Position numbers and translations under genes: made by a program. A stretch of 10,386 bases of DNA from IMG/VR virus record IMGVR_UViG_3300028965_000008, positions 1-10,386 of that record. One strand, 5' to 3'. Below, in pieces: positions 1 to 10,386 of the stretch. Source of the stretch: a virus. Taxonomy: Duplodnaviria > Heunggongvirae > Uroviricota > Caudoviricetes. Position 1 is the first letter of the stretch. Every line of letters starts with the position of its first letter. Under the pieces are notes generated by a model, which was not told the DNA's origin, did not search any database, and was given only the letters and a program-made list of their open reading frames with translations.

Positions 1-9
1 AAATCCATA

Positions 10-165
10 TCACTCACCTGAGTTTCTTTCCAGCCAGCGACGGGCACCATTTTCGGTTTTAAACGTTTTGCTTTTGGTATACGTCATCGCGGTGAATGTG
101 CCGTCCTGGTTGGGAAACACGCCGTACACCAGAGATTCGTTGTTGCCAAGATCGATAGTATCCAT
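10..165 (-). CDS. ydfA: YdfA-like small prophage protein (DUF1391), 51 aa
   Basis: Within minus ORF 10..219; an internal ATG at 165 gives MDTIDLGNNESLVYGVFPNQDGTF..., preceded by a GAGG Shine-Dalgarno about 6 nt upstream. Lies downstream of the dicA-like gene in the same orientation, as in Qin. The product identity is from memory of YdfA and is not verified. Confidence 0.6.
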   Translation of the reverse strand: MDTIDLGNNESLVYGVFPNQDGTFTAMTYTKSKTFKTENGARRWLERNSGE

Positions 166-219
166 GTTGACCTCATTTCCCCTTAACGCCGGGGTAGCGG
201 AACTGTTTGCTGAGAACAC

Positions 220-368
220 CGTGCGGTGTCTTGATGAATAAAATTTAGAATAACCTAAGGTGGATGGTCAAGGTTTTTGTGTAGAAAAACCTAAGTTTTT
301 TTGATGTAAAAAACACAAGTGTTTGAAAGTTTGTGCTTTTTATTACAGGGTGTGGAGAAAAAAGGGGG
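220..368 (-). promoter_or_regulatory. Intergenic region between dicA-like stop and ydfA-like start: probable pL-like promoter/operator and dicA 3' end
   Basis: AT-rich 149-bp gap. Contains CCTAAG motifs at 253-258 and 290-295, with ACCTAAGGT (252-260) a short palindrome; the minus strand reads TTGACC followed about 17-19 nt later by TAAAT-like hexamers. A weak AT-rich hairpin GGTTTTT-gtgtag-AAAAACC sits at 272-291. Confidence 0.35.
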
Positions 369-776
369 TTATTTGTTTGCGCTTCTTTTGCGAGCTTTGA
401 GTAGTTCTTCAAAAAGTTTGTTGAAATTTTCAACTCGAGCACGCATCTCTGACAACAGGGCCTTTTGCTCTGACTCAGGCAGTGCGTCGAACAGTTGAAG
501 TAACTCTTTTTGATCTTCTGTCAGAATGGCTGGTTGATTATCCGGGAGCGGTTCGCCTGGTTGTTTATCTTCATCCCCAAAAAGAAGCCAAGTCGGTGAG
601 CACTGAAGCGCTTGGCTCAGTGCGAATAATCTTTTCCCCGCCGGCTGTGTTTCATCTCTTTCCCATTGAGAAATTGTTACGTGAGCCACTTTGACCAGCT
701 TACCTAATGCGGCCTGAGACAGTTTTAATTTTTTACGCCTATGTAAGAGGCGAGCACCGAAGGTTTCGTTTTTCAT
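369..776 (-). CDS. dicA: HTH (XRE-family) prophage repressor, DicA-like (CI/C2 functional analogue), 135 aa
   Basis: ORF translation MKNETFGARLLHRRKKLKLSQAALGKLVKVAHVTISQWERDETQPAGKRLFALSQALQCSPTWLLFGDEDKQP...NFNKLFEELLKARKRS closely resembles E. coli DicA as recalled, with the HTH at the N-terminus; divergent from the Cro-like gene. Confidence 0.85.
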   Translation of the reverse strand: MKNETFGARLLHRRKKLKLSQAALGKLVKVAHVTISQWERDETQPAGKRLFALSQALQCSPTWLLFGDEDKQPGEPLPDNQPAILTEDQKELLQLFDALPESEQKALLSEMRARVENFNKLFEELLKARKRSANK

Positions 777-852
777 ATTAGGGAATTCTAATTTTTCTTG
801 ACTTAGGTTTCTCTACGATCTAGTTTCCTTAGGAAAATCTAAGGAGTTCGAT
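777..852. promoter_or_regulatory. Divergent immunity promoter/operator region (pR-like for dicC; pRM-like for dicA)
   Basis: Candidate -35 TTGACT at 798-803, a 17-nt spacer, a weak -10 TAGTTT at 821-826, then AAGGAG (841-846) 6 nt before the dicC ATG at 853. Operator-like inverted repeat CCTTAG-N6-CTAAGG at 827-844 and CTTAGG at 802-807 overlap the promoter. Confidence 0.5.
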
Positions 853-1080
853 ATGTTGAAAATTGATGCTATAGCGTTTTTTGGCAGCAAAACAAAGCTT
901 GCCAATGCCGCAGGAGTTAGGCTGGCAAGCATTGCTGCATGGGGGGAACTGGTTCCTGAAGGTCGCGCGATGCGCCTGCAAGAGGCATCCGGCGGGGAAC
1001 TTCAGTACGACCCTAAAGTTTATGACGAATATCGTAAGGCAAAGCGGGCGGGGCGGTTGAACAATGAAAATCACCCCTGA
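853..1080 (+). CDS. dicC: Cro-like regulator DicC, 75 aa
   Basis: MLKIDAIAFFGSKTKLANAAGVRLASIAAWGELVPEGRAMRLQEASGGELQYDPKVYDEYRKAKRAGRLNNENHP resembles DicC as recalled; divergent from the dicA-like gene; strong SD AAGGAG. Confidence 0.8.
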   Translation: MLKIDAIAFFGSKTKLANAAGVRLASIAAWGELVPEGRAMRLQEASGGELQYDPKVYDEYRKAKRAGRLNNENHP

Positions 1081-1615
1081 ACAGGTTTGTGAGGCTCTGG
1101 ATGCCTGGGTATGCCGACCAGGAATGACACAGGAGCAGGCGACGATATTAATCACGGAAGCATTCTGGGCTCTGAAAGAACGCCCGAACATTGATGTTCA
1201 ACGCGTCACGTTTGATGATGGCGCGGTTGATCAACGGGCACTGGGCGTTAACCGGGTGAAGATATTCGAACGCTGGAAAGCTATCGACACCAGGGATAAG
1301 CGTGAAAAATTCACGGCGCTGATTCCGGCAATTATGGAGGCTATCCGGATCAGCGATTTCAGGTTGTATTGTGAAATTACTGACGGAAAAAGCATTACGT
1401 ACATGATCGCCGGGTTAAACAAAGAATATGGCGATGTGGTGGAGTCCGGGCTGCTTTTTGCGGATCCAGCTGTTGTGGAGCGTGAGACTGACGAGCTTAT
1501 AGAAAAAGCTATTGCTTTCAAGCATGCGTATCGTCAGCAATACCAACATTACTTTGCAGATAAACAAATATCTGTCTGGGGTTCGTATGAGTATCGATGC
1601 ACTACGATGGGCTAA
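1064..1615 (+). CDS. YdaT-like protein (CII-position prophage regulator/toxin family), 183 aa
   Basis: ATG at 1064 overlaps the dicC stop. The segment DKREKFTALIPAIMEAI resembles the conserved core of Rac YdaT; position immediately after cro matches the cII slot. Confidence 0.55.
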   Translation: MKITPEQVCEALDAWVCRPGMTQEQATILITEAFWALKERPNIDVQRVTFDDGAVDQRALGVNRVKIFERWKAIDTRDKREKFTALIPAIMEAIRISDFRLYCEITDGKSITYMIAGLNKEYGDVVESGLLFADPAVVERETDELIEKAIAFKHAYRQQYQHYFADKQISVWGSYEYRCTTMG

Positions 1616-2627
1616 AAAGGTGAAAACCGGCAGTTCATCCAGCAAGTCAGTATTGACCTGGCTTGCTGATATGTGCGGTGCCGATTTGTGTGCATACCCG
1701 TCTGTATCTGCACTGGCAGAAGTAACGGAACTGAACAAAAAGACTGTGCAGGACAGCTTACGACACCTGATGGAGATTGGGTTAATTGTTGATACCGGTG
1801 AGAGAAAAGGCAGAACAAAGCAAATTGTGGTGTACCGACTTATCGGTGTAGAAGAAAGTGTTGCCGAGCCTGAATACACCCAAAAACGGGAGTCTTTAAA
1901 GGTGGGTAAAATTGGTGCTGTTAATAAAAACAGTACCGAAAATGGTTATGTTTCAGCACAAAACAGCCCCAAAAACGGAACTCTTAGCTGCATGGAAAAT
2001 AACCAAAGACACCCAAATTTTCCATCAAAGACACCCAAAAACGGATCACGGAACCCAAAGGAACCCAAAGATCTAACCCCCACACATAACGCACGCGAGA
2101 GTGCTCCGACCAGTGAGCAGGAAGTTTTGTCGTTACAGGCAGCACCCCCTGTATTCCTGGGTGGCCTGAGCGAACCCATCGGAAAATTTCCGATGACCGA
2201 TAGCTGGTATCCGTCACGGGATTTTCGACGACGGGCTGCGTTGTGGGGGATGGCTTTGCCGGAGACAGAATTTACACCTGCTGAACTTGCCGCCTTCCGG
2301 GACTACTGGGCAGCGGAGGGGAAAGTATTTACGCAGATTCAGTGGGAGCAGAAATTCGCCCGTCACGTAAATCACGTCAGGGCGCAGGTTAAACCAGTCA
2401 GCAAGGGGGTGAACCATGCAGCAGCACCAGGTGGCACCGCATCACGGGCAGTTCAGGAAATTCGGGCAGCACGTGAGCAGTGGGAACGTGAAAACGGATT
2501 TATCAGCGACGGAAACGGCCTGGAAGCTGTGGGAACTCATGGGGGAGGTTTATTCGAACCGCTGGACTCAGAAGAACGGGGCCGCACCTTCGAAGCTCTG
2601 GATTGCACAGATTGGCGCGATGACTGA
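1587..2627 (+). CDS. Replication initiator (O-like): N-terminal HTH replication domain plus DnaT-like C-terminal domain
   Basis: The first ATG of the ORF is at 1512, but the ATG at 1587 (MSIDALRWAKKV...) just overlaps the YdaT-like stop. The C-terminal segment GKFPMTDSWYPSRDFRRRAALWGMALPETEFTPAELAAFRDYWAAEGKVFTQIQWEQKFAR resembles the E. coli DnaT C-terminus ([26 protein letters not shown]...[20 protein letters not shown]). The 3' end is uncertain because of the overlap with the next gene. Confidence 0.7.
   Translation: MSIDALRWAKKVKTGSSSSKSVLTWLADMCGADLCAYPSVSALAEVTELNKKTVQDSLRHLMEIGLIVDTGERKGRTKQIVVYRLIGVEESVAEPEYTQKRESLKVGKIGAVNKNSTENGYVSAQNSPKNGTLSCMENNQRHPNFPSKTPKNGSRNPKEPKDLTPTHNARESAPTSEQEVLSLQAAPPVFLGGLSEPIGKFPMTDSWYPSRDFRRRAALWGMALPETEFTPAELAAFRDYWAAEGKVFTQIQWEQKFARHVNHVRAQVKPVSKGVNHAAAPGGTASRAVQEIRAAREQWERENGFISDGNGLEAVGTHGGGLFEPLDSEERGRTFEALDCTDWRDD
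1967..2070. repeat. Iteron-like direct repeats inside the initiator gene (candidate replication origin)
   Basis: Five copies of the core (A/C)CCCAAA at 1967, 2011, 2033, 2053 and 2063, including a perfect tandem GAACCCAAAG x2 (2051-2070) and the longer repeat CAAAGACACCCAAA at 2004-2017 and 2026-2039; spacings are about 10, 20 and 22 bp; an AT-richer stretch lies at 1911-1960. Confidence 0.5.
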
Positions 2628-3081
2628 GCAGCAAATCCGGCAGGTCTGCCGCCAGTGCATGGACCGTTGCAGGGCAGGTGAAACATGGCCTCCGGACCTG
2701 GCTGAGTTTGTGGCGCTGATTTCGGAGAGCGGGGCAAATCCATTTGGTCTGACGGTGGATAACGTGATGGAGGAGTACCGACGCTGGCGCAACGAGTCCT
2801 GGCGATACGACGGAAGCGATAAATACCCGTGGTCTCAGCCTGTGCTGTATCACATTTGTCTCGAGATGCGTTCAAAGGGGATTGAGCGCCAGATGACCGA
2901 AGGGGAATTAAAACGGCTTGCAGAACGGCAACTGACGAAATGGGCAAAGCATGTTGGTAACGGACTGAGTGTTCCACCCGTCCGTAGGCAACTGGCAGCA
3001 CCCATACGTCCTGCGGGACCAACGCCAATTGAGTTGCTGAAACAGGAATATGAACGCAGGAAAGCGGCAGGTTTTGTTTGA
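2416..3081 (+). CDS. Lambda P-like replication protein (helicase loader), about 221 aa
   Basis: Similarity to lambda P as recalled: AGETWPPDLAEFVALISES versus PFLPSPGQFVAWCREE, a conserved YPW, and ELKRLAERQL versus ELRRKAADEL. Strong SD AAGGGGG 5 nt before the ATG at 2416. Alternative starts are ATG 2539 and ATG 2620; the latter overlaps the upstream stop as ATGACTGA. Confidence 0.7.
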   Translation: MQQHQVAPHHGQFRKFGQHVSSGNVKTDLSATETAWKLWELMGEVYSNRWTQKNGAAPSKLWIAQIGAMTEQQIRQVCRQCMDRCRAGETWPPDLAEFVALISESGANPFGLTVDNVMEEYRRWRNESWRYDGSDKYPWSQPVLYHICLEMRSKGIERQMTEGELKRLAERQLTKWAKHVGNGLSVPPVRRQLAAPIRPAGPTPIELLKQEYERRKAAGFV

Positions 3082-3110
3082 GTTGATAAGTAATTTTACC
3101 GGGAGGGTTT

Positions 3111-3506
3111 ATGGCGAAACCTTTTACACCCGAACAGCGGGAAGAGCTGAAGGCACGAATTATCGGATTGGTACGCAAAAATGGACGCATGACGATGTCG
3201 CAACTGGAGAGAGCGACGGGAGCTGGCTGGCATTCGGTCCGACGCTGCCTTGTGGATGTACTGGCTTGTGGTGATTTATACATGTCCGGGGAATACGGTG
3301 TTTTTGCATCAGAGCAGGCGTATCGTGAATGGCGTAAGACACCGGAGAAAACAACTGACCAGACACTGATTCGAAAGTTACCAGACGGAGAAATACGCCG
3401 CTACGACAGACACCTGAACATAATCTGTCGCGAGTGCCGGAAGAGTGAGGTTATGCAGCGAGTGCTGGCGTTTTATCAGGGGAAATTTCAGGAGGTGATG
3501 CTGTGA
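3111..3506 (+). CDS. Hypothetical prophage protein, 131 aa, possible winged-helix N-terminus
   Basis: SD GGGAGGG 4 nt upstream of ATG 3111. The N-terminus LKARIIGLVRKNGRMTMSQLERATGAGWHSVRRCL looks like a wHTH, judged by eye; no family recognised. Confidence 0.55.
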   Translation: MAKPFTPEQREELKARIIGLVRKNGRMTMSQLERATGAGWHSVRRCLVDVLACGDLYMSGEYGVFASEQAYREWRKTPEKTTDQTLIRKLPDGEIRRYDRHLNIICRECRKSEVMQRVLAFYQGKFQEVML

Positions 3507-3745
3507 GCGAATCAAAATGTCAGGTTAATGGCAATCAGTTAGAACTATGTGCGGCACTGGCAAAAGCCCTTGAGCATGATGCTGAATACACGATGCGAAA
3601 AGGTCTGCTGATATACAAAATCTGGAATGAGAATTTAACTCGCGCCCCTGATTTGGTGATGTTGCGTTCCGGTGAATTTTCTAAATCACCTATTCGAGTC
3701 TCATTTTGCCCGTTCTGTGGTGAAAGTCTGAAAACATGGAAATAA
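3503..3745 (+). CDS. Hypothetical small protein, 80 aa, GTG start, Cys-containing C-terminus (CPFCG)
   Basis: GTG at 3503 overlaps the upstream stop (GTGA); strong SD AGGAGGTGA at 3490-3498. Confidence 0.5.
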   Translation: MSESKCQVNGNQLELCAALAKALEHDAEYTMRKGLLIYKIWNENLTRAPDLVMLRSGEFSKSPIRVSFCPFCGESLKTWK

Positions 3746-3756
3746 GGAGACAACCA

Positions 3757-4281
3757 GTGAGCAAGATTGACTATCAGGCACTGCGTGGGGCGGCAGAAGC
3801 AATAAAAATAGCAGCCACACCACAAAAATTGCTGGCATTTCGTATGAAAGCCACACCTCAGGTTGTGTTGGAACTGCTGGATGAACTGGAAATTAAAAGC
3901 AAACGAATTAACGAGTTAATCAAGGGTGGTGAAAACGCCAAATACGTGACTGAAATTTTCCGACTTGAGAAAGAACGCATGGCGCTGGCGGCGGAGAATG
4001 CGGGGCTGAATAAATTTATCGTACAGAGTTGCTACGTGTTTGATGGCGAGCAGGATGAACTATCTGATGCGTATATCTGCGCAACAGACGGAGGTATGCC
4101 GCAAACCCCGGCTACAGATGCTTTCCTGGCTGATGTACGGGCGGTGGCGTTTGACGAACTTCGCGCGGCGTTTGTCAGGCACGTAAAAGTTGCAGGACTG
4201 GATGAGGCCGATACCGTAACGCTTAAGGAAGTGACAGAAGCATTGTTGCATTGTGCGGAACAGATTCGCGCGCCTGAATAA
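3757..4281 (+). CDS. Ead/Ea22-like family prophage protein
   Basis: The ORF is open from ATG 3736, but a GTG at 3757 has SD AAGGAG 7 nt upstream and lies after the upstream stop at 3745. SKIDYQALRGAAEAIK... with a coiled-coil-like N-terminus resembles Ead/Ea22-like proteins; family assignment is from memory. Confidence 0.55.
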   Translation: MSKIDYQALRGAAEAIKIAATPQKLLAFRMKATPQVVLELLDELEIKSKRINELIKGGENAKYVTEIFRLEKERMALAAENAGLNKFIVQSCYVFDGEQDELSDAYICATDGGMPQTPATDAFLADVRAVAFDELRAAFVRHVKVAGLDEADTVTLKEVTEALLHCAEQIRAPE

Positions 4282-4375
4282 TTAAATTTAGTGTTGTAAA
4301 TAAAATTTAATCCTTAACCGGAGGGATTTCTGCACCCTCAGAACATCAGGAGGCCGCCCGAAAGGGCGGTAATGA

Positions 4376-4594
4376 ATGGTCACATTATTCAGAAAAAAAT
4401 ATCCACGAAAGAGTAGAACAACAGAATTTCTGTTTCTCATTCTGTTTATCGTGTTGATGATACCGATATCCCCGCTAATTTTTGTCTGGGCAATCGGGAA
4501 AATAATTGAGCCAGTTATTGAATTGTATAACGACGTGGTGTGGGCGTCGTTCAACACACTGCACAATAAAATTAACCCGTATAAGGAAAGCTGA
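4376..4594 (+). CDS. Small predicted membrane protein, 72 aa
   Basis: Hydrophobic stretch FLFLILFIVLMIPISPLIFVWAIG; lies in an AT-rich segment; its stop at 4592-4594 sits directly before the HNH gene ATG at 4596 (translational coupling). A minus-strand ORF (4288..4602) overlaps it, so strand assignment is not certain. Confidence 0.45.
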   Translation: MVTLFRKKYPRKSRTTEFLFLILFIVLMIPISPLIFVWAIGKIIEPVIELYNDVVWASFNTLHNKINPYKES

Positions 4595-4595
4595 T

Positions 4596-4961
4596 ATGGC
4601 ACTGACGAAAAAGCAACGTGCAGAACTGCGCATGAAGTTCGGTGGTCGCTGTGCTTATTGCGGCTGCGAACTTGGCGAAAAGTGGCATGCAGACCATGTA
4701 AAACCGGTCATTCGTTTTGATGGAAATATGCTTCACCAGGAACGTGACGGTATATCCAACATGGTTCCGGCATGCCACCCATGCAATCTGCACAAGCATT
4801 GCAGTAGCCTGGAAGATTATCGGCGAATTATCAGTGATGGTCGTCGTGAATTCCTTGCGTCCGGGAAAGGCAAAGCGCTGGTTCGTATGGGATTGGTTGA
4901 AATGAAACCTGACCCGGTTGTGTTCTGGTTTGAAAAATATCAAGAAGGGGCTACAGCATGA
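4596..4961 (+). CDS. HNH endonuclease, 121 aa
   Basis: MALTKKQRAELRMKFGGRCAYCGCEL...HADHVKPV...NMVPACHPCNLHK carries the HNH signature (CxxC, H-N-H, CxxC); SD AAGGAAAG 5 nt before the ATG at 4596. Confidence 0.8.
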   Translation: MALTKKQRAELRMKFGGRCAYCGCELGEKWHADHVKPVIRFDGNMLHQERDGISNMVPACHPCNLHKHCSSLEDYRRIISDGRREFLASGKGKALVRMGLVEMKPDPVVFWFEKYQEGATA

Positions 4962-5521
4962 CCACTTTTACCAATAGCAAACTAACAGACGAATACGTTT
5001 CAAATGCAACGTTGATTCGGCTCATTCTGTGGGCTGACCAGCACAATAGTCATTATGTTGCAGCGGCTCTGCGCGAGCTACAGGAGCGCCGCAAGGCTGA
5101 TAGTGTGCCTGTAGAAATCAACGACGACATGGCTTACGCATTCCATCGCGCACTGTCAGATTCATCGCCAGGCGCTGATGAGGTAGAGGAAATTAAGACA
5201 GGGTTGCGTGCAGCCTTTGCCAATGTCACCACCCAACCAGCACCAGTAGTGCCGGAATTTGAAACATGGTTTAACAGCCAGGAGTCAGGGAGGAGTATAT
5301 GCAGCACACAGATTCGTCGTTACCTTCAGGAAATTTCATGGAACGCCTGCCGCGCCGCCATGCTTAAGGGAGATAAATCACGATTAATCGAACCAAACTG
5401 GAGCACATTCTCGAATATGCCAGGCAGCAGAAATGTATTGGGCAACTTTGTAAAATTCCACCAGGAGATATGGTTGAAATCGTGGAAATTGCCATGCGCA
5501 AGGCTGGCAACTCTCCGGTAA
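4958..5521 (+). CDS. Hypothetical prophage protein, 187 aa as read; the 3' end may be frameshifted into the DUF551 gene
   Basis: ATG at 4958 overlaps the HNH stop (ATGA), with SD GAAGGGG. The C-terminal tail WLKSWKLPCARLATLR looks non-native, while the alternative frame is open from 5377 and reads protein-like sequence. Confidence 0.5.
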   Translation: MTTFTNSKLTDEYVSNATLIRLILWADQHNSHYVAAALRELQERRKADSVPVEINDDMAYAFHRALSDSSPGADEVEEIKTGLRAAFANVTTQPAPVVPEFETWFNSQESGRSICSTQIRRYLQEISWNACRAAMLKGDKSRLIEPNWSTFSNMPGSRNVLGNFVKFHQEIWLKSWKLPCARLATLR

Positions 5522-5739
5522 CTCCGGATGGTTGGATAAGCTGTAGTGAGCGAATGCCGGATACCAAAACAGCCGTTCTTGTTGCCGTGGAGTTTGACAG
5601 GAAAGGTGACTGGCGAATGAAATGGGCGACTTACATCCCGGGGCATCCTGACGCTAATGATGGGTGGATAATTCCTGGTGCGTCGTGGAAACCGTCACAC
5701 TGGATGCCGCTACCGGAACCGCCACAGGAGGTGAGTTAA
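5470..5739 (+). CDS. DUF551 domain protein, 89 aa from ATG 5470
   Basis: The C-terminus ...DGWIIPGASWKPSHWMPLPEPP is typical of DUF551 prophage proteins as recalled. AGGAG lies only 2 nt before the ATG, and the frame is open upstream to 5377 with no canonical start, so the true N-terminus is uncertain. Confidence 0.6.
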   Translation: MVEIVEIAMRKAGNSPVTPDGWISCSERMPDTKTAVLVAVEFDRKGDWRMKWATYIPGHPDANDGWIIPGASWKPSHWMPLPEPPQEVS

Positions 5740-5822
5740 TGACCTGGCCTGAAGCATTCACAACGGTAGGAATTGCGATGGCGGTGGCGCTGGTGGTGTA
5801 TTCGATTTGCCGTTGGGGATAA
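5739..5822 (+). CDS. Small hydrophobic peptide, 27 aa (MTWPEAFTTVGIAMAVALVVYSICRWG)
   Basis: Excellent SD AGGAGGTGA 4 nt upstream; the ATG overlaps the DUF551 stop (TAATG); followed by a hairpin terminator. Below the size cut-off of the ORF track. Confidence 0.35.
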   Translation: MTWPEAFTTVGIAMAVALVVYSICRWG

Positions 5823-5834
5823 ATCACCGTAAAA

Positions 5835-5874
5835 AAAGATCCCGACACAAACATGAGCCGGGATCTTTGATTTA
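5835..5874. terminator. Putative bidirectional intrinsic terminator
   Basis: 10-bp stem AAAGATCCCG (5835-5844) / CGGGATCTTT (5859-5868) with a 14-nt loop; an A-run precedes it (a T-run on the minus strand) and TTTGATTTAT follows. Confidence 0.45.
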
Positions 5875-5940
5875 TATAGCTTACGAATCCGCCAGTAAGA
5901 GAGCGGGGCGGATGGCTTATTTTAACATTGGGGTGGAGGA

Positions 5941-5983
5941 ACCAAAAGTGTTGTTTTGGCTTACCAAAACGATCGTTTTGGTA
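5941..5983. promoter_or_regulatory. Tandem inverted repeats including a perfect 22-bp palindrome TACCAAAACGATCGTTTTGGTA
   Basis: Arms ACCAAAA / TTTTGG(C/T) occur at 5941-5947, 5954-5960, 5963-5969 and 5976-5982; the palindrome at 5962-5983 is perfect and centred on GATC. It lies upstream of the Doc cassette. Confidence 0.4.
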
Positions 5984-6094
5984 GCTAAAAATTTTTATCC
6001 GCATTAGACTAATCTAACCTTAGTACTACACTATTAATTACGCGCCAGGTTGGTGCGTTGGCCTTGCCAAAAGAACTTCAAGGGAAACGACAAG

Positions 6095-6274
6095 ATGAGC
6101 TACGCACTCAAGAAACACACACGGCTAAATATTCCGCCTCGCGACAAACGGGTTGTGGCAGCCCCTCGCCCGGCGATTGATGAAAACTGCACTCATCGTG
6201 AGCAGGTGAAAAATGCTTTCGATTTCGGTTTTTCTCGTTACGAGAAGGCAATGGAAGAACTTTCAAAAGTGTAA
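6095..6274 (+). CDS. Small protein, 59 aa; putative partner (antitoxin candidate) of the downstream Doc-family toxin
   Basis: ATG at 6095 (MSYALKKHTRL...) with SD-like AGGGAAA 9 nt upstream; ends 18 nt before the Doc ORF. No resemblance to Phd/YefM or YhfG noted by eye. Confidence 0.5.
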   Translation: MSYALKKHTRLNIPPRDKRVVAAPRPAIDENCTHREQVKNAFDFGFSRYEKAMEELSKV

Positions 6275-6292
6275 TGATGGGTATTGTGCTCT

Positions 6293-6772
6293 ATGGCTGA
6301 GATTGTTGAAGGAGTGCATTACCTTACGGTTGATGATCTTGTTGAAATCAATCGTTCCCTAATTGAATTACAGACGCCAGATGAGCCCGTTGGTGTTCTG
6401 AGTCCAGATAGCTTAAGTTCTTCTCAGGCCCGTCCCAGCATGGTTCGATGGTATGAACAGACTAATGACATGTTTGTACTGGTATCGGTATTGATTGAAA
6501 GTCTGATTCAGAATCATCCGTTTGCTAATGCGAACAAACGAACAGCTATGATGGCTGGTTACGTCTTCTTGTTGTTGAATGGCTATGAGTTAACAGCACC
6601 AGGCGATGAAATCGTGGAAATGGCAGAGGGACTGGCCTGCAAAACCTATACTCGAGAAGATCTCGAGAACTGGTTGTGTTATTGGTCTCGTGCGTATGAC
6701 AGCCGGGAATTATGTAAAACAGGCGCAACTATTGTTTTGTATGAAACTATCAAGCTTAAAATAGAACAGTAA
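6293..6772 (+). CDS. Doc (death-on-curing) / Fic-fold family toxin
   Basis: HPFANANKRTAMMAGYVFLLLNGYEL matches the Doc signature HxFx(D/N)(A/G)NKR and resembles P1 Doc (HIFNDANKRTAL...FLRRNG). Start is ATG 6293 or the in-frame TTG at 6284. Confidence 0.8.
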   Translation: MAEIVEGVHYLTVDDLVEINRSLIELQTPDEPVGVLSPDSLSSSQARPSMVRWYEQTNDMFVLVSVLIESLIQNHPFANANKRTAMMAGYVFLLLNGYELTAPGDEIVEMAEGLACKTYTREDLENWLCYWSRAYDSRELCKTGATIVLYETIKLKIEQ

Positions 6773-6792
6773 AACTAAAGGTGCTTCTAATG

Positions 6793-6816
6793 AAAACCCG
6801 CTTCGGCGGGTTTTTT
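6793..6816 (+). terminator. Rho-independent terminator
   Basis: GC stem CCCGC (6797-6801) / GCGGG (6806-6810), flanked by A and T runs, with a UUCG tetraloop and a T6 tract at 6811-6816; lies 21 nt after the Doc stop. Confidence 0.75.
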
Positions 6817-7007
6817 GTTGTTTATCTTCGGTGAGCTTGATGCATCTGGTTGTACTGATGTGGCTGTCTGATTTTGTTATTCAGGTGGCTTATTGCTGTT
6901 GATTGGTATGTCTTCACGGCTAGAATCGAGGCTCTTAAGTAGCGCGCAGGGAGAAGAGGGATGGACCCCGAACAGGGGAGTGCTATTTATCTGGAAGGAT
7001 TCTGTTG

Positions 7008-7268
7008 ATGAAAATCGAAGAATTGCGTGAAATTTTTAGTGAAGATGGCCTCTATACTGTGCGCGTTGAGAATGGCGCTATTGTCAGCCACTGCCGTATT
7101 AAATGTTTACAGTCTCAACAAAGGAAGAGTGGGGCTGCGTTAATTTACTTTGTGGATGGACTTGTGACGGATGGTTTTATTTTGCGTGAAAATGAATTTG
7201 TCACATCATTGCAGTCTCTGAAAGAAGCTGAGCTTAAGGCTGGTTTTTCTGCTTTTGAAGATGTGTGA
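7008..7268 (+). CDS. Hypothetical protein, 86 aa
   Basis: ATG at 7008 with SD GGAAGGA 8 nt upstream (the ORF track begins at the in-frame TTG at 7005). Confidence 0.5.
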   Translation: MKIEELREIFSEDGLYTVRVENGAIVSHCRIKCLQSQQRKSGAALIYFVDGLVTDGFILRENEFVTSLQSLKEAELKAGFSAFEDV

Positions 7269-7335
7269 ATTCAACTACAATTTAGCGCAGGGCTGAACCC
7301 CCTGTTGAGTAACACTGTGCCACCGGAGAAAACCG

Positions 7336-7614
7336 ATGGCGCAAAATTCCAGACTACACAATTCTGATAATTCAGCCGTCTTTGCCAGCAGGCACGGGCG
7401 GCGTTCTCATGCATTCAAATATGACTGGTACCAGCATGACCCATGCACTGAAGAACAGGCCGAATGGCTGATTCAGAACTACCGCAGACGTGGGTATGAG
7501 TTTAGGAAAGCCCTCAGCCTCGATTATCGTCACTGGATAATCTACGTCAGGCTCCCTTACTCCGAACGCCCACCGCGTCCGTCCCGCACATTCCAGCAAC
7601 GCATCTGGAGGTAA
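7336..7614 (+). CDS. Hypothetical small prophage protein, 92 aa (sits in the Qin rem-like position upstream of the DUF968 gene)
   Basis: SD GGAG 7 nt before the ATG at 7336; the stop lies immediately before the DUF968 GTG start. Confidence 0.5.
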   Translation: MAQNSRLHNSDNSAVFASRHGRRSHAFKYDWYQHDPCTEEQAEWLIQNYRRRGYEFRKALSLDYRHWIIYVRLPYSERPPRPSRTFQQRIWR

Positions 7615-7615
7615 C

Positions 7616-8665
7616 GTGCGGGTATTGCTTCGACCTGTTCCGGTACCGGAACTCGGGCTGGTGGTCTTTAAGCCTGGTCGTGAATCCATGCAGGTATTTC
7701 ATAACCCTCGAGTGCTGGTGGAGCCGGAACCGAAAAGCATGCGCGGTCTGCCGTCCGGAGTTGTTCCTGCCGTTCGCCAGCCGCTGGCAGAAGATAAATC
7801 ATTGCTGCCATTTTTCAGCGACGAACGGGTGATTCGTGCTGCCGGCGGCGCTGGTGCACTGTCTGACTGGCTCCTGCGTCATGTTAAATCCTGCCAGTGG
7901 TCTCATGGTGACTACCATCACAGTGAAACCGTCATACATCGTTACGGTACCGGCGCGATGGTGTTGTGCTGGCACTGCGACAACCAGCTGCGTGACCAGA
8001 CCTCAGAATCACTTGAGCAACTTGCTCAACAAAACCTGACAGCATGGATGATTGACGTCATCCGTCACGCAATAAGCGGTGCGCAGGAGCGTGAATTATC
8101 GCTGGCTGAATTATCCTGGTGGGCTGTCTGCAATCAGGTGGTGGACGCACTACCGGAGGTAGTATTACGTCGTTCTCTGGGGTTACGTGCGGAAAAAATT
8201 CGCTCGGTGTACCGCGAAAGCGACATCATACCGGGAGAGCAGACCGCCACCAGCATACTGAAGCAGCGCACAAAAAATCTTGCGCCGTTGCCTCACGCCC
8301 ACCAGCAACCGAACCCACCACAGGAAAAGACGGTGGTCAGTATCGCCGTTGATCCGGAGTCTCCTGAATCTTTCATGAAGCGACCTAAACGTCGCCGTTG
8401 GGTGAATGAGAAATACACGCGTTGGGTAAAGACACAGCCGTGTGCGTGTTGTGGTAAGCCAGCAGACGATCCCCATCACCTGATTGGTCATGGTCAGGGC
8501 GGGATGGGAACAAAATCCCACGATATTTTCACGCTACCGTTGTGTCGGGAGCATCACAACGAGCTTCATGCGGATCCGCTGGCGTTCGAAGAAAAGCATG
8601 GTTCCCAGATTGATTTAATTTTTCGTTTTCTTGATCACGCCTTTGCAACCGGCGTGCTCGGGTAA
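7616..8665 (+). CDS. DUF968 domain protein (YdfU-like), 349 aa, with a Cys/His-rich C-terminal module
   Basis: GTG start at 7616 with GGAGG 5 nt upstream. C-terminus CACCGKPADDPHHLIGHG...CREHHNELH; length and position (before rusA/Q) match Qin YdfU as recalled. Confidence 0.7.
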   Translation: MRVLLRPVPVPELGLVVFKPGRESMQVFHNPRVLVEPEPKSMRGLPSGVVPAVRQPLAEDKSLLPFFSDERVIRAAGGAGALSDWLLRHVKSCQWSHGDYHHSETVIHRYGTGAMVLCWHCDNQLRDQTSESLEQLAQQNLTAWMIDVIRHAISGAQERELSLAELSWWAVCNQVVDALPEVVLRRSLGLRAEKIRSVYRESDIIPGEQTATSILKQRTKNLAPLPHAHQQPNPPQEKTVVSIAVDPESPESFMKRPKRRRWVNEKYTRWVKTQPCACCGKPADDPHHLIGHGQGGMGTKSHDIFTLPLCREHHNELHADPLAFEEKHGSQIDLIFRFLDHAFATGVLG

Positions 8666-8677
8666 AAGAGGTTACTG

Positions 8678-9052
8678 ATGCGTATAGAGTTTGTTTTGCC
8701 TTACCCGCCAACGGTGAACACCTACTGGCGACGTCGTGGCAGCACATATTTTGTATCAAAAACCGGTGAGCGTTATCGCCGGGATGTGGCACTTATTGTT
8801 CGCCAGCAGCAACTGAAATTAAACCTGTCCGGAAGGCTGGCGATAAAGATTATTGCAGAGCCACCGGATAAGCGCCGTCGTGACCTGGACAATATTCTGA
8901 AAGCACCACTGGATGCGCTGACGCATGCGGGACTGCTTATCGACGACGAGCAGTTTGATGAAATCAATATTGTGCGCGGTCAGGTCGTTCCCGGTGGGCG
9001 GTTGGGCGTGAAAATTTACGAAATAATGCATGACGGGCAGGTCAAAAAATGA
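8678..9052 (+). CDS. rusA: RusA Holliday-junction resolvase
   Basis: LPYPPTVNTYWRRRG...DKRRRDLDNILKAPLDALTHAGLLIDDEQ resembles E. coli RusA (LPWPPSNNRYYRH...[27 protein letters not shown]); SD AAGAGG. Confidence 0.85.
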   Translation: MRIEFVLPYPPTVNTYWRRRGSTYFVSKTGERYRRDVALIVRQQQLKLNLSGRLAIKIIAEPPDKRRRDLDNILKAPLDALTHAGLLIDDEQFDEINIVRGQVVPGGRLGVKIYEIMHDGQVKK

Positions 9053-9870
9053 AGCTGGAAGATTTACCGAAATACTATTCCCCGAAATCGCCTGGCCTGA
9101 CCGATGCGTCCGCCTCGACATCAAAAGATGCGCTGAGCATCACTGATGTGATGGCTGCGCAGGGTATGACACAAAACCGGGCTGAGATGGGGTTTTCTGC
9201 GTTCCTGGGGAAAATGGGCATTAGTATGAATGACAGGGCGCGGGCAACAGAATTACTGGCAGATTATGCATTAAGTCAGTGCGATCGCGTGGCGGCGTTA
9301 AGAAAGCTTCCGGCAGAAATAAAACCGGCAGTGATGCACATTATGGCCTCGTATGCCTTTGAGGATTATGCCCGCAGCGCAGCGAGTAAAAAGCGATGCC
9401 CTTGTTGCCGAGGGGAAAAATTTATTGAAAGCGAGGTTTTTACAAACAAGGTCCAGTATCCGGATGGTAAGCCGCCAGTATGGGCAAAGTGTACAAAAGG
9501 CGTGTATCCGTCTTACTGGGAAGAATGGAAAAAAATCCGGGAGGTGGTGAAAGTTTCCTGTCCTGAATGTAAAGGGAAGGGGGAGATTTCGACTGCCTGT
9601 AAAGATTGCCGTGGGCGTGGTGTTGCCATTCATCGTGAAGAATCAGAAAAACGGGGTATGCCTGTTATCAGGGACTGCCGGCGTTGTGGCGGTCGTGGCT
9701 ATGAAAGATTACCGTCAACGGAGGCATTTAATGCCATATGTGGGGTGACAAATCAGATAACACGCGCGTCATGGGAAAAAACGGTTAAGCAATTCTATGA
9801 CACGCTGGTGGTTCGGTTTGACATTGAAGAGGCATGGGCGGAGCGACAGTTAAAAAAGGTAACCAGATAA
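9049..9870 (+). CDS. Q-like late-gene antitermination protein, 273 aa, with CxxCxGxG zinc-finger repeats
   Basis: ATG overlaps the rusA stop (ATGA). Position immediately upstream of a late-promoter/terminator pair. Cys-rich repeats CPCCRGEK, CPECKGKG, CKDCRGRG, CRRCGGRG. Confidence 0.7.
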   Translation: MKLEDLPKYYSPKSPGLTDASASTSKDALSITDVMAAQGMTQNRAEMGFSAFLGKMGISMNDRARATELLADYALSQCDRVAALRKLPAEIKPAVMHIMASYAFEDYARSAASKKRCPCCRGEKFIESEVFTNKVQYPDGKPPVWAKCTKGVYPSYWEEWKKIREVVKVSCPECKGKGEISTACKDCRGRGVAIHREESEKRGMPVIRDCRRCGGRGYERLPSTEAFNAICGVTNQITRASWEKTVKQFYDTLVVRFDIEEAWAERQLKKVTR

Positions 9871-9875
9871 CAAGG

Positions 9876-9903
9876 TTGATTTTTCCGGAATCTGTGGTAA
9901 ATT
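9876..9903 (+). promoter_or_regulatory. PR'-like late promoter (probable Q-utilisation region)
   Basis: -35 TTGATT at 9876-9881, a 16-nt spacer, -10 TAAATT at 9898-9903 (the lambda PR' -10 is also TAAATT, from memory); 6 bp after the Q stop. Confidence 0.5.
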
Positions 9904-9951
9904 CGCCCTAACGATGGGCGTTTTGTGCCTGGCGTTAGAAGAATCTTTACA

Positions 9952-9975
9952 GCCCGCCATCGAGCGGGTTTTTTA
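9952..9975 (+). terminator. tR'-like intrinsic terminator
   Basis: Stem CCCGC (9953-9957) / GCGGG (9964-9968), loop CATCGA, then T6 at 9969-9974; about 50-70 nt downstream of the predicted late promoter. Confidence 0.7.
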
Positions 9976-10095
9976 TGCCTGGAAAATGGTGCAGAACATC
10001 AAACGCTCTGGTGGTTGCAAATACTGGTCTTTCGGCTTGCATTTTTGTAAAGCGATATATACTTATCTTACAATCAGTAATGTCAGGTAAGTTGA

Positions 10096-10386
10096 TATGA
10101 ATGAAGCCTGTTCTGTTGTTTTTGTTCATTCCCCGTTTGTTGTGCTCTTTGAAGGAAAAGAGCTCTCTCTGGAAAGTGGTAGTGCACTTCTTGTCAGGGG
10201 GGGAGCTGGATCGTTATTGCCCTTTTCGGAATGTTTTCGGCGAATAAGTCTCAGTGAATCAACAATTATCCGTTACCTGTTGTGTGGAGACGAAAAACAG
10301 GATGTAGTTTTAGTCCGGCAAATACCACGATATCTTTGCGTGAGTTTTCCCAAGGCAGAATTGATGGGCATCCTGATTGATTATCT
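10096..10386 (+). CDS. AraC-family transcriptional regulator, YdeO/AppY-like N-terminal part (partial; continues beyond the window)
   Basis: ATG at 10096 with SD AGGTAAG. MNEACSVVFVHSPFVVLF...STIIRYLLC resembles the N-termini of YdeO (MSLVCSVIFIHHAF...NTIKKYLQC) and AppY (MDYVCSVVFICQSF) as recalled. The ORF is open to the end of the window. Confidence 0.6.

Follow-up and report, generated by a model that had tools for sequence, protein, structure and literature searches.

The stretch of DNA analysed here (hereafter, the window) comprises positions 1 to 10,386 of the Caudoviricetes record IMGVR_UViG_3300028965_000008. It corresponds to the early-right region of a lambdoid prophage and is 98.7% identical to the 'PPompW' prophages of Shiga-toxin-producing Escherichia coli, whose gene names (dicA, dicC, dicB, ydfC, rem, hokD, and rusA) indicate a Qin/Rac-like prophage. 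Within the replication initiator gene of this prophage, an array of direct repeats is observed in the part encoding a linker between an N-terminal winged-helix domain and a C-terminal DnaT-like single-stranded DNA (ssDNA)-binding domain (Table 1). We consider it probable that this segment, at positions 1873-2066, serves in cis as the array to which the initiator binds and is most likely also the origin from which the prophage replicates, lying inside the initiator's own gene.

With regard to the repeats themselves, the original prediction had described five copies of an ACCCAAA core, including a perfect tandem, between positions 1967 and 2070. The core occurs at positions 1878, 2011, 2033, 2053, and 2063, always on the + strand. 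Four of these copies lie within that interval and one, at 1878, does not; the fifth sequence counted in the interval is CCCCAAA, at 1967, which is not an exact copy. The core is weakly enriched (5 copies observed against 2.1 expected in the window, with 12 of 200 shuffles reaching 5) and was dropped as the repeat unit because this enrichment is only marginal. The true, conserved unit is the 11/12-mer CCCAAAAACGG(G), the 11-mer of which is present in three exact copies (at 1879, 1968, and 2034) against 0.02 expected, a number reached in none of 200 shuffles. The repeats are real and non-random. The longer repeats were described correctly, each being present twice: CAAAGACACCCAAA at 2004 and 2026, and CCCAAAAACGGA at 1968 and 2034, with a third copy of the latter, CCCAAAAACGGG, at 1879. 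The tandem is indeed perfect, but it is the local form of a second conserved repeat class and not an iteron, and the left boundary of the array has to be moved from 1967 to approximately 1873, with the right end at 2066.

The placement of the repeats between a helix-turn-helix (HTH) domain and a DnaT-like domain agrees with the domain assignments, the Pfam matches being HTH_36 at residues 36-67 and DnaT at residues 201-267, on either side of a linker with predicted local distance difference test (pLDDT) scores below 50. The array comprises three exact and approximately three degenerate copies in codons 98-153, after the winged-helix domain (residues 1-90), all of them on the coding strand. In the 44-kb genome of a related prophage, the 11-mer (with at most one mismatch) is confined to the initiator gene, apart from one chance match on the opposite strand. 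The five ACCCAAA copies span all three codon phases, in which they are read as T-Q-K, H-P-N, T-P-K, N-P-K, and E-P-K, and this was the first sign of a DNA feature instead of a peptide feature. Two initiator variants of 324 residues (P0006 and P0007) lack exactly 22 codons (66 nucleotides) relative to codons 128-149 of the window gene. This gap equals the distance between the iterons at 1968 and 2034 and fits a change in iteron copy number by recombination between iterons.

The original prediction had named a lack of DNA-level conservation in homologous initiator genes as grounds for rejecting it, and the repeats were found to be conserved, at the same positions and on the same strand, in approximately 12 genera. 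Homologues were collected by protein search and locus retrieval; they match over the full length or over the N-terminal part, with 37-61% amino-acid identity, and originate from Kluyvera, Enterobacter, Scandinavium, Edwardsiella, Plesiomonas, Serratia, and Superficieibacter. Each of these genes contains four to six copies of the 11-mer (with at most two mismatches), which are confined to the coding strand and lie at the shared gene offsets 293, 319, approximately 350, 370, 403, and 458/478. The offset of the first iteron, 293, is kept in nine of the ten homologues scanned, the copy being lost in L008. Across the approximately 12 genera, arrays of four to seven copies occupy the same place in the gene. 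Among more distant phage initiators that share the winged-helix domain, that of phiV10 exhibits seven CCnAAAAACGG copies there, that of Vibrio phage H20 six CCCGAAAACGG copies, five of them at 24-bp spacing, that of Acinetobacter phage AP22 three to four copies of GAACCCAAAT, and that of Burkholderia phage Bcep176 six GGAACAGTCCCAAA copies, spaced by 17-22 bp and distributed over all three codon phases. Iteron variants include CCCAAAAACGG, CCCGAAAACGG, GAACCCAAAT, and GTCCCAAA.

The variant site CCCAAATTTTCC has counterparts as well, namely CCCAATTTTGG in the Edwardsiella, Plesiomonas, and Serratia types and the perfect palindrome CCCAAATTTGGG in AP22 and Bcep176. The part of the array that is best conserved across genera is the last iteron with its flank. 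Among 53 close E. coli variants (92-99% identical), positions 2007-2066 are the least variable part of the linker, but the whole N-terminal half varies little, and this is hence weak evidence. Of 5,426 complete E. coli genomes, 908 (approximately 17%) contain the N-terminal part of the initiator gene (window 1587-2100), among them O157:H7 and other Shiga-toxin-producing strains.

After the last iteron, every lineage examined exhibits the second repeat class, which consists of GGAACC or (C)AGAACC units with a period of 10-12 bp. It takes the form of GGAACCCAAA twice in the window, AGAACCAGTCAT three times in H20, and GGAACAGTAG four times in Bcep176, and is also seen in Enterobacter, Superficieibacter, and AP22; in most lineages, AAAGATCT then follows. 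The two GATC sites at 2044-2047 and 2070-2073 are the only ones between 1463 and 5838, where approximately 17 would be expected from length alone, and the AGATCT at the joint that ends the array is kept in most relatives, including Vibrio phage H20. This pair of sites in the array and joint may reflect control by Dam or SeqA.

Table 1 Features of the window, with positions, strand, and basis of assignment
Feature	Position	Strand	Basis
Whole repeat array (iterons and GGAACC tandem), module-specific part of the linker	1873..2066	+	Repeat families D1 and D2; homologue arrays at the same offsets; mosaic junction at 2067
Iteron 1, exact CCCAAAAACGG, codon phase 1 (T-Q-K-R)	1879..1889	+	
Decayed iteron GGTAAAATTGG, at offset 319, where relatives have CCCAAAAACGG	1905..1915	+	In-register homologue comparison
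Degenerate iteron ACCGAAAATGG (in relatives, ACCGAAAACGG)	1935..1945	+	Repeat family D3; homologues
Iteron, exact CCCAAAAACGG, phase 0 (P-K-N-G)	1968..1978	+	
Variant site CCCAAATTTTCC	2012..2023	+	Sequence; homologues
Last iteron, exact CCCAAAAACGG, phase 0, overlapping the GATC at 2044	2034..2044	+	
Second repeat class, tandem of GGAACCCAAA, 2.1 copies	2050..2070	+	Tandem Repeats Finder: period 10, 100% matches
Conserved joint AAAGATCTAACCCCCACACATAACGCACG, GATC at 2070, recombination boundary	2067..2095	+	Shared with initiators bearing unrelated N-terminal modules
Initiator gene, 346 residues: winged-helix N-terminal domain, disordered linker, DnaT-like ssDNA-binding domain	1587..2627	+	Translation, Pfam, PHROG, PGAP
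Winged helix-turn-helix DNA-binding domain, residues 1-90, presumed iteron reader	1587..1856	+	AlphaFold2, Foldseek, homologue motif
DnaT-like three-helix ssDNA-binding domain, residues 201-267	2187..2387	+	Pfam PF17948, Foldseek
Lambda-P-like helicase loader gene	2620..3081	+	Pfam PF06992, BLASTP, PHROG; start after PGAP
Repressor gene	369-776	minus	
Cro-like gene	853-1080		
YdaT-like gene	1064-1615		
DUF977 gene	3111-3506		

The repeats are under selection at the DNA level. Depending on the codon phase, one and the same 11-mer encodes either P-K-N-G or T-Q-K-R. In the codons of the [PT][KE]NG motif, proline is encoded by CCC in 31 of 31 cases, against 31 of 190 elsewhere in the same genes (Fisher p 7e-21), lysine by AAA in 26 of 26, against 124 of 237, and asparagine by AAC in 42 of 43, against 124 of 199. 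When synonymous codons were shuffled within the genes (300 trials), a mean of 14.8 and a maximum of 23 matches were obtained, compared with 44 observed 11-mers; this shuffle errs on the conservative side, since the iteron codons themselves form part of the codon pools, and it counts related sequences as independent, as does the codon test. Further evidence comes from the reading frame. Enterobacter and Kluyvera read the last iteron and its 3' flank as P-K-N-G-T-R-N-L-P-R-N-H-K-D-L, whereas in Edwardsiella, Plesiomonas, and Serratia a different frame turns the same DNA into (T/P)-Q-K-R-D-(T/P)-E-S, and a one-base indel further on restores the frame. Over these 52 nucleotides, lineages using different frames share 69-87% DNA identity, while the DNA of the folded winged-helix domain is 64-70% identical in the same lineages (31-48% at third codon positions). 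As the linker is better conserved as DNA than the folded domain, even across a frame change, it is the DNA on which selection acts.

It could be argued that a low-complexity linker of the PKNG type is selected as protein, the likeness of the DNA being a by-product of recent duplication or codon bias. PKNG, PENG, and TENG do recur in the linker of all homologues, one phase holds most of the copies, and the 324-residue length variants would fit slippage between repeats. Nevertheless, this explanation is extremely improbable, given the reading of the same 11-mer as TQKR in another phase, the invariable use of the rare proline codon CCC, the failure of the synonymous shuffle to reach the observed count, the higher DNA identity across the frame change than in the folded domain, the presence of the Bcep176 array in all three phases, and the occurrence of intergenic arrays, which are described below. 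Since the array lies in a disordered linker, the DNA requirement most likely dictates the peptide (PKNG, TQKR, and NPKEPK), and not the reverse.

The array is inherited as one unit with the winged-helix domain, in a mosaic module ending at window position 2067. In the Edwardsiella, Plesiomonas, and Serratia proteins, similarity to the window protein is limited to residues 1-163, i.e., to the domain and the array, after which a Phg_2220_C C-terminus follows, a domain assigned to lambda O (PMC5509034). The opposite holds for initiators from E. albertii and Salmonella: their N-termini are unrelated, the match starts only at window position 2067, and the joint AAAGATCTAACCCCCACACATAACGC is shared; the local alignments to L002 and L005 both begin at exactly this position. 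L002, from Escherichia albertii, combines an unrelated N-terminus with the same DnaT-like C-terminal half and exhibits different repeats at the equivalent position of the linker, at 2139-2175 and 2420-2503 (TGTCACGACGAGTCACG in six copies forming two clusters, and ACAGATAAAGAT in three copies). Three copies of each stand directly to the left of the shared joint. Outside this module, the upstream genes vary among lineages, and so does the downstream partner. It is P-like in most of them, whereas AP22 has a DnaB-like helicase in this place and H20 and Bcep176 have other proteins.

The domain that accompanies the array is predicted to bind DNA. In an AlphaFold2 model of the initiator built with 21 homologues, residues 1-90 form helices and a beta-hairpin wing, as in a winged helix (pLDDT 70-89), residues 91-195 are predicted to be a disordered linker, and residues 200-266 form a three-helix domain. 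The Pfam HTH_36 match scores 20.8-23.8 bits in the window initiator, slightly below the 25-bit cutoff, and 40-50 bits in the initiators of phiV10, H20, AP22, and Bcep176. In Foldseek searches, the N-terminus matches MarR-like winged-helix proteins, including the N-terminal domains of plasmid Rep proteins (5kbj and 4pql), and the motif DTGER.G.T of this domain is invariant among homologues. The C-terminal domain matches DnaT, both in Pfam (PF17948, 61.4 bits against a cutoff of 25, E 6.5e-17) and in structure (6aeq and 4ou6, E ~1e-5, 49-58% identity, target-normalised TM-score 0.83-0.91). The whole protein matches phrog_1032, 'replication initiation protein', with an E-value of 1e-90, and is named 'DnaT-like ssDNA-binding domain-containing protein' by the Prokaryotic Genome Annotation Pipeline (PGAP). 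It is highly probable that the repeats are iterons bound by this initiator.

The orientation of the repeats could suggest a different reader. All copies lie on the transcribed sense strand, the two GATC sites in the element are the only ones in 4.4 kb, and the lineages differ by frame changes at these very motifs, as might be expected if the repeats were recognized by another factor (a host protein, Dam/SeqA, or another phage protein) and not by the N-terminal domain of the initiator, or if they acted in the mRNA as a translation or frameshift signal. Such a role is very improbable. The array co-segregates with the winged-helix domain, while the upstream genes, the C-terminal domains, and the downstream partners vary, a different N-terminal domain comes with different repeats, copies also occur between genes, and a scan of the whole window with Rfam matched no family. 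Programmed ribosomal frameshifting was rejected as a candidate, as the motif has only five A's and never stands in the canonical X XXY YYZ phase.

The association of repeats and domain was also approached in the reverse direction, by a scan of IMG/VR in which the DNA pattern, two exact 11-mers separated by 7-37 nucleotides, was the only criterion, and which yielded at least 120 loci. Among the matches listed, 109 of 120 viral loci have a same-strand hit to a hidden Markov model of the winged-helix domain immediately upstream of the repeats, with a median E-value of ~1e-37. Locus L160 is an exception, as its protein belongs to the lambda O family (PF04492, E 1.5e-31; positions 2346-3138). Its gene carries three copies of TTACCCAAAAACGGGTA and one of TTACCCAAATTCGGGTAA just after the PF04492 domain, which links the 11-mer core to the lambda O family. 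Six further loci (L148, L196, L207, L213, L221, and L229) exhibit an array of two to four CCCAAAAACGGGTACATTCAAAAT copies ending in CCCAAAATTGGG or CCCAATTTTGGG, with only short open reading frames (59-101 residues) across it. In L148, L196, L213, and L221, the array lies in a gap of several hundred bp without long open reading frames, between divergently oriented genes. In L196, the intergenic array, at 7875-7935, is separated by 7.3 kb from an initiator gene that contains an array as well, while no initiator is present in the stretch fetched for L148, L207, L213, L221, and L229. The intergenic arrays might serve as second origins, or they might belong to elements that replicate with an initiator borrowed from a helper phage.

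Among the closest known systems is the origin of lambda, in which iterons and an AT-rich tract lie in the middle of gene O, each iteron being a 19-bp imperfect inverted repeat and two iterons with the AT-rich tract forming the minimal unwinding unit; Shiga toxin (Stx) phages exhibit six-iteron origins (PMC7466680). The original prediction was right to place the lambda iterons inside gene O: in the lambda record, four are annotated at 39034-39118, within O (38686-39585), in codons 117-145, directly after the N-terminal domain (PF04492, residues 22-115). They belong to the type ATCCCTCAAAACGAGGGA, read ATCCCTCAAAACGAGGGAAA, ATCCCCTAAAACGAGGGATA, ATCCCTCAAATTGGGGGATT, and ATCCCTCAAAACAGGGGGAC, and are followed by an A-rich, AT-rich tract, ACAAAAGACACTATTACAAAAGAAAAAAGAAAAGATTATT. 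The window shares with lambda and the Stx phages the position of the iterons inside the initiator gene directly after the N-terminal domain, a similar copy number (4-6), a P-like helicase-loader gene downstream, and the exchange by recombination of the N-terminal domain and iterons as a specificity module. The cores are also alike, since those of lambda (TCCCTCAAAACGAGGGA and TCCCTCAAATTGGGGGA) and the element of the window (ACCCAAAAACGGGA and CCCAAATTTTCC) exhibit a similar A-tract flanked by CCC/GGG, with an AAATT variant in both, and the PF04492 gene of L160 uses the same CCCAAAAACGGG core.

In contrast, the protein cannot be recognized as lambda O by its sequence. BLASTP of the window initiator against lambda O is not significant, and PF04492 reaches 14.9 bits in it against a cutoff of 28.7 (E 0.04). 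Only PHROG families with an 'O-like' label match the window initiator, at 1e-10 to 1e-5, and the relation to lambda O was judged from these labels, from the weak PF04492 match, and from an HHpred statement in PMC5509034. The C-terminal domain is DnaT-like in the window, whereas relatives from Edwardsiella and Serratia that share the N-terminal domain and the array carry Phg_2220_C instead. At the DNA level, the window differs from lambda in having a GGAACC tandem and an A+C-rich stretch after the iterons in place of an AT-rich tract, in its irregular spacing, and in the partial inverted symmetry of its iterons. The unit CCCAAAAACGGG is symmetrical only as CCC-N6-GGG, whereas L160 exhibits the perfect palindrome TTACCC-N6-GGGTAA and AP22 and Bcep176 exhibit CCCAAATTTGGG.

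The repeats could also be genuine initiator-binding sites that serve autoregulation or copy control, as a transcriptional roadblock in the initiator's own operon or through pairing of arrays, while replication starts elsewhere. Control iterons are known in iteron plasmids, an AT-rich unwinding element is absent beside the array, and arrays occur apart from the gene, at 7.3 kb in L196 and without an initiator in the stretch fetched for five contigs. However, the equivalent in-gene array of lambda is the origin, according to both the literature (PMC7466680) and the annotation. In addition, repeat and composition scans revealed no other repeat cluster or candidate origin near the replication genes, and the second repeat class, conserved in all lineages examined, flanks the array together with the joint, conserved in most, as expected for an origin core. 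We regard this alternative as unlikely, and it is likely that the array marks the replication origin.

Several observations nevertheless weigh against an origin that is opened by the initiator at this array. No AT-rich unwinding tract like that of lambda is found beside it: the 60 nucleotides after the last iteron are 47% AT, the highest AT content in the initiator gene (68%) lies at 1920-1959, and the top strand is A+C-rich between 2000 and 2080. No consensus DnaA boxes are present at the array. Several iterons have decayed in the window, which leaves three intact, and the spacing is irregular (26, 30, 33, 44, and 22 bp). All copies lie on the coding strand, an orientation that, taken alone, is compatible with a role at the RNA level. 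The codon and shuffle tests are subject to the relatedness of the sequences mentioned above. The searchable literature, with older subscription papers outside reach, yielded no experiment on, or description of, any member of this initiator/iteron family. Finally, the small circular record NZ_CP148379.1 (L116) is open to two readings. This record of 8,461 bp, deposited as a circular E. coli plasmid, comprises a repressor, cro, ydaT, the initiator with three exact 11-mers, P, a few defence-like genes, hokD, and rem, and shares window positions 939-3117 at 96% identity. It may be a natural mini-replicon of the lambda-dv type, and thus a weak hint of self-sufficiency, or it may be an assembly artefact. 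As regards other signals, no convincing promoters or terminators were found near the array.

Origin repeats inside an initiator gene are known beyond lambda, in Bacillus phage SPP1 (oriL/oriR with G38P) and in the rep genes of lactococcal phages. SPP1 has a second copy of the binding sites elsewhere in its genome, which resembles the combination of in-gene and intergenic arrays in L196, although the initiator fold, the hosts, and the repeat sequences differ from those of the window. Iteron plasmids of the RK2, pSC101, R6K, and P1 type likewise exhibit direct repeats in the same orientation that are bound by a winged-helix initiator, and their origins are intergenic, with DnaA boxes and AT-rich 13-mers. 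The regular 22-24 bp spacing in some relatives (22 in Bcep176 and 24 in H20) is reminiscent of these plasmids. The array of the window, in contrast, is coding, irregular, and devoid of a consensus DnaA box or AT-rich tract, and its initiator does not belong to the Rep_3 family.

The two-gene architecture of the window prophage is identical to that of DopC/DopE from Cellvibrionales and Oceanospirillales, in which an HTH_36 domain with a DnaT C-terminal domain is followed by a lambda-P-like protein (PMC5509034). Brezellec et al. traced the pair back to lambdoid O/P genes. In dopC, which is a domesticated chromosomal gene, they detected no iterons, and GC skew shows no origin there (PMC5509034). 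The phage form in the window differs in carrying a conserved iteron array, which is consistent with the origin having been lost when the gene was domesticated.

By analogy with lambda (PMC7466680), the winged-helix domain would bind the repeats and replication would start there, and the place of opening can be proposed on the same grounds. The N-terminal domain (residues 1-90) would recognize the 11/12-mer CCCAAAAACGG(G), of which three intact and approximately three decayed copies are present in one orientation, and binding would build a nucleoprotein complex comparable to the lambda O-some. Strand opening or entry of the helicase would probably take place at the flanking GGAACC repeats and the conserved AGATCT joint. 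The C-terminal DnaT-like domain could hold ssDNA and/or dock the downstream P-like protein, which would deliver host DnaB.

A broader and more tentative possibility, which we consider rather doubtful at present, is that the core CCCAAA(AA/TT)NGGG, found in phages of Enterobacterales, Vibrio, Acinetobacter, and Burkholderia, is an ancient iteron core that co-evolved with a winged-helix initiator superfamily including lambda O. Origin DNA would then write the linker sequence, and opening would take place at the GGAACC/AGAACC tract by the AGATCT joint, with no AT-rich element. At the peptide level, PKNG and TQKR would be by-products that a frameshift can exchange for each other, and the intergenic arrays of L148, L196, L207, L213, L221, and L229 would be second origins or the origins of helper-dependent elements. 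The ssDNA-binding C-terminal domain might act at the GGAACC/AGAACC tract, yet the type of C-terminal domain makes no difference to this tract, which always accompanies the N-terminal module.

With regard to the neighbouring genes, the P-like gene lies directly downstream of the initiator gene, its start overlapping the initiator stop (ATGA), and the same order is found in the eight relatives whose downstream open reading frames were read. The gene matches Pfam PF06992 (E 8e-17), lambda P in BLASTP (E 4e-7), and the PHROG 'P-like helicase loader'. Its start was taken from the PGAP annotation of the homologous gene (L113, locus position 7034) and converted to window coordinates, giving 2620. This start is ambiguous, as the frame is open from 2416, with approximately 210 nucleotides of overlap with the 3' end of the initiator gene, and the PPompW depositors chose 2659. 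Two further features were observed outside the replication genes. A 24-bp tandem repeat, CAAGTGTTTTTGTGTAGAAAAACA, is present in 2.4 copies at window positions 269-324, just past the 3' end of the repressor gene; it lies within a stretch of 80% AT and may represent operators, a terminator, or another array bound by a protein. Among all 40-mers of the window, the one at 4278-4317 has the highest AT content (88%). It is located at the junction of the convergent open reading frames 3736-4281 (+) and 4288-4602 (-) and could mark the boundary of a module or a terminator region.

Textbooks already describe iterons within an initiator gene; what is new here is a candidate origin, proposed from the sequence, for this particular replication module, for which the records inspected contain no origin annotation. 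The candidate is defined by its 11-mer, its copies, and its boundaries, and the DNA signature by itself leads to the winged-helix domain directly upstream. Also new are an iteron core common to phages of several orders and to a true O-family gene, and an unusually clear case of a cis-acting DNA element that constrains a coding region across a change of reading frame. The finding bears on the domestication of DopC/DopE, as the phage ancestors of DopC would have carried iterons while the domesticated copies are reported without them (PMC5509034). In Shiga-toxin-producing strains, the replication of lambdoid prophages affects induction and toxin output (PMC7466680), so the origin of co-resident prophages such as this one would be useful to know.

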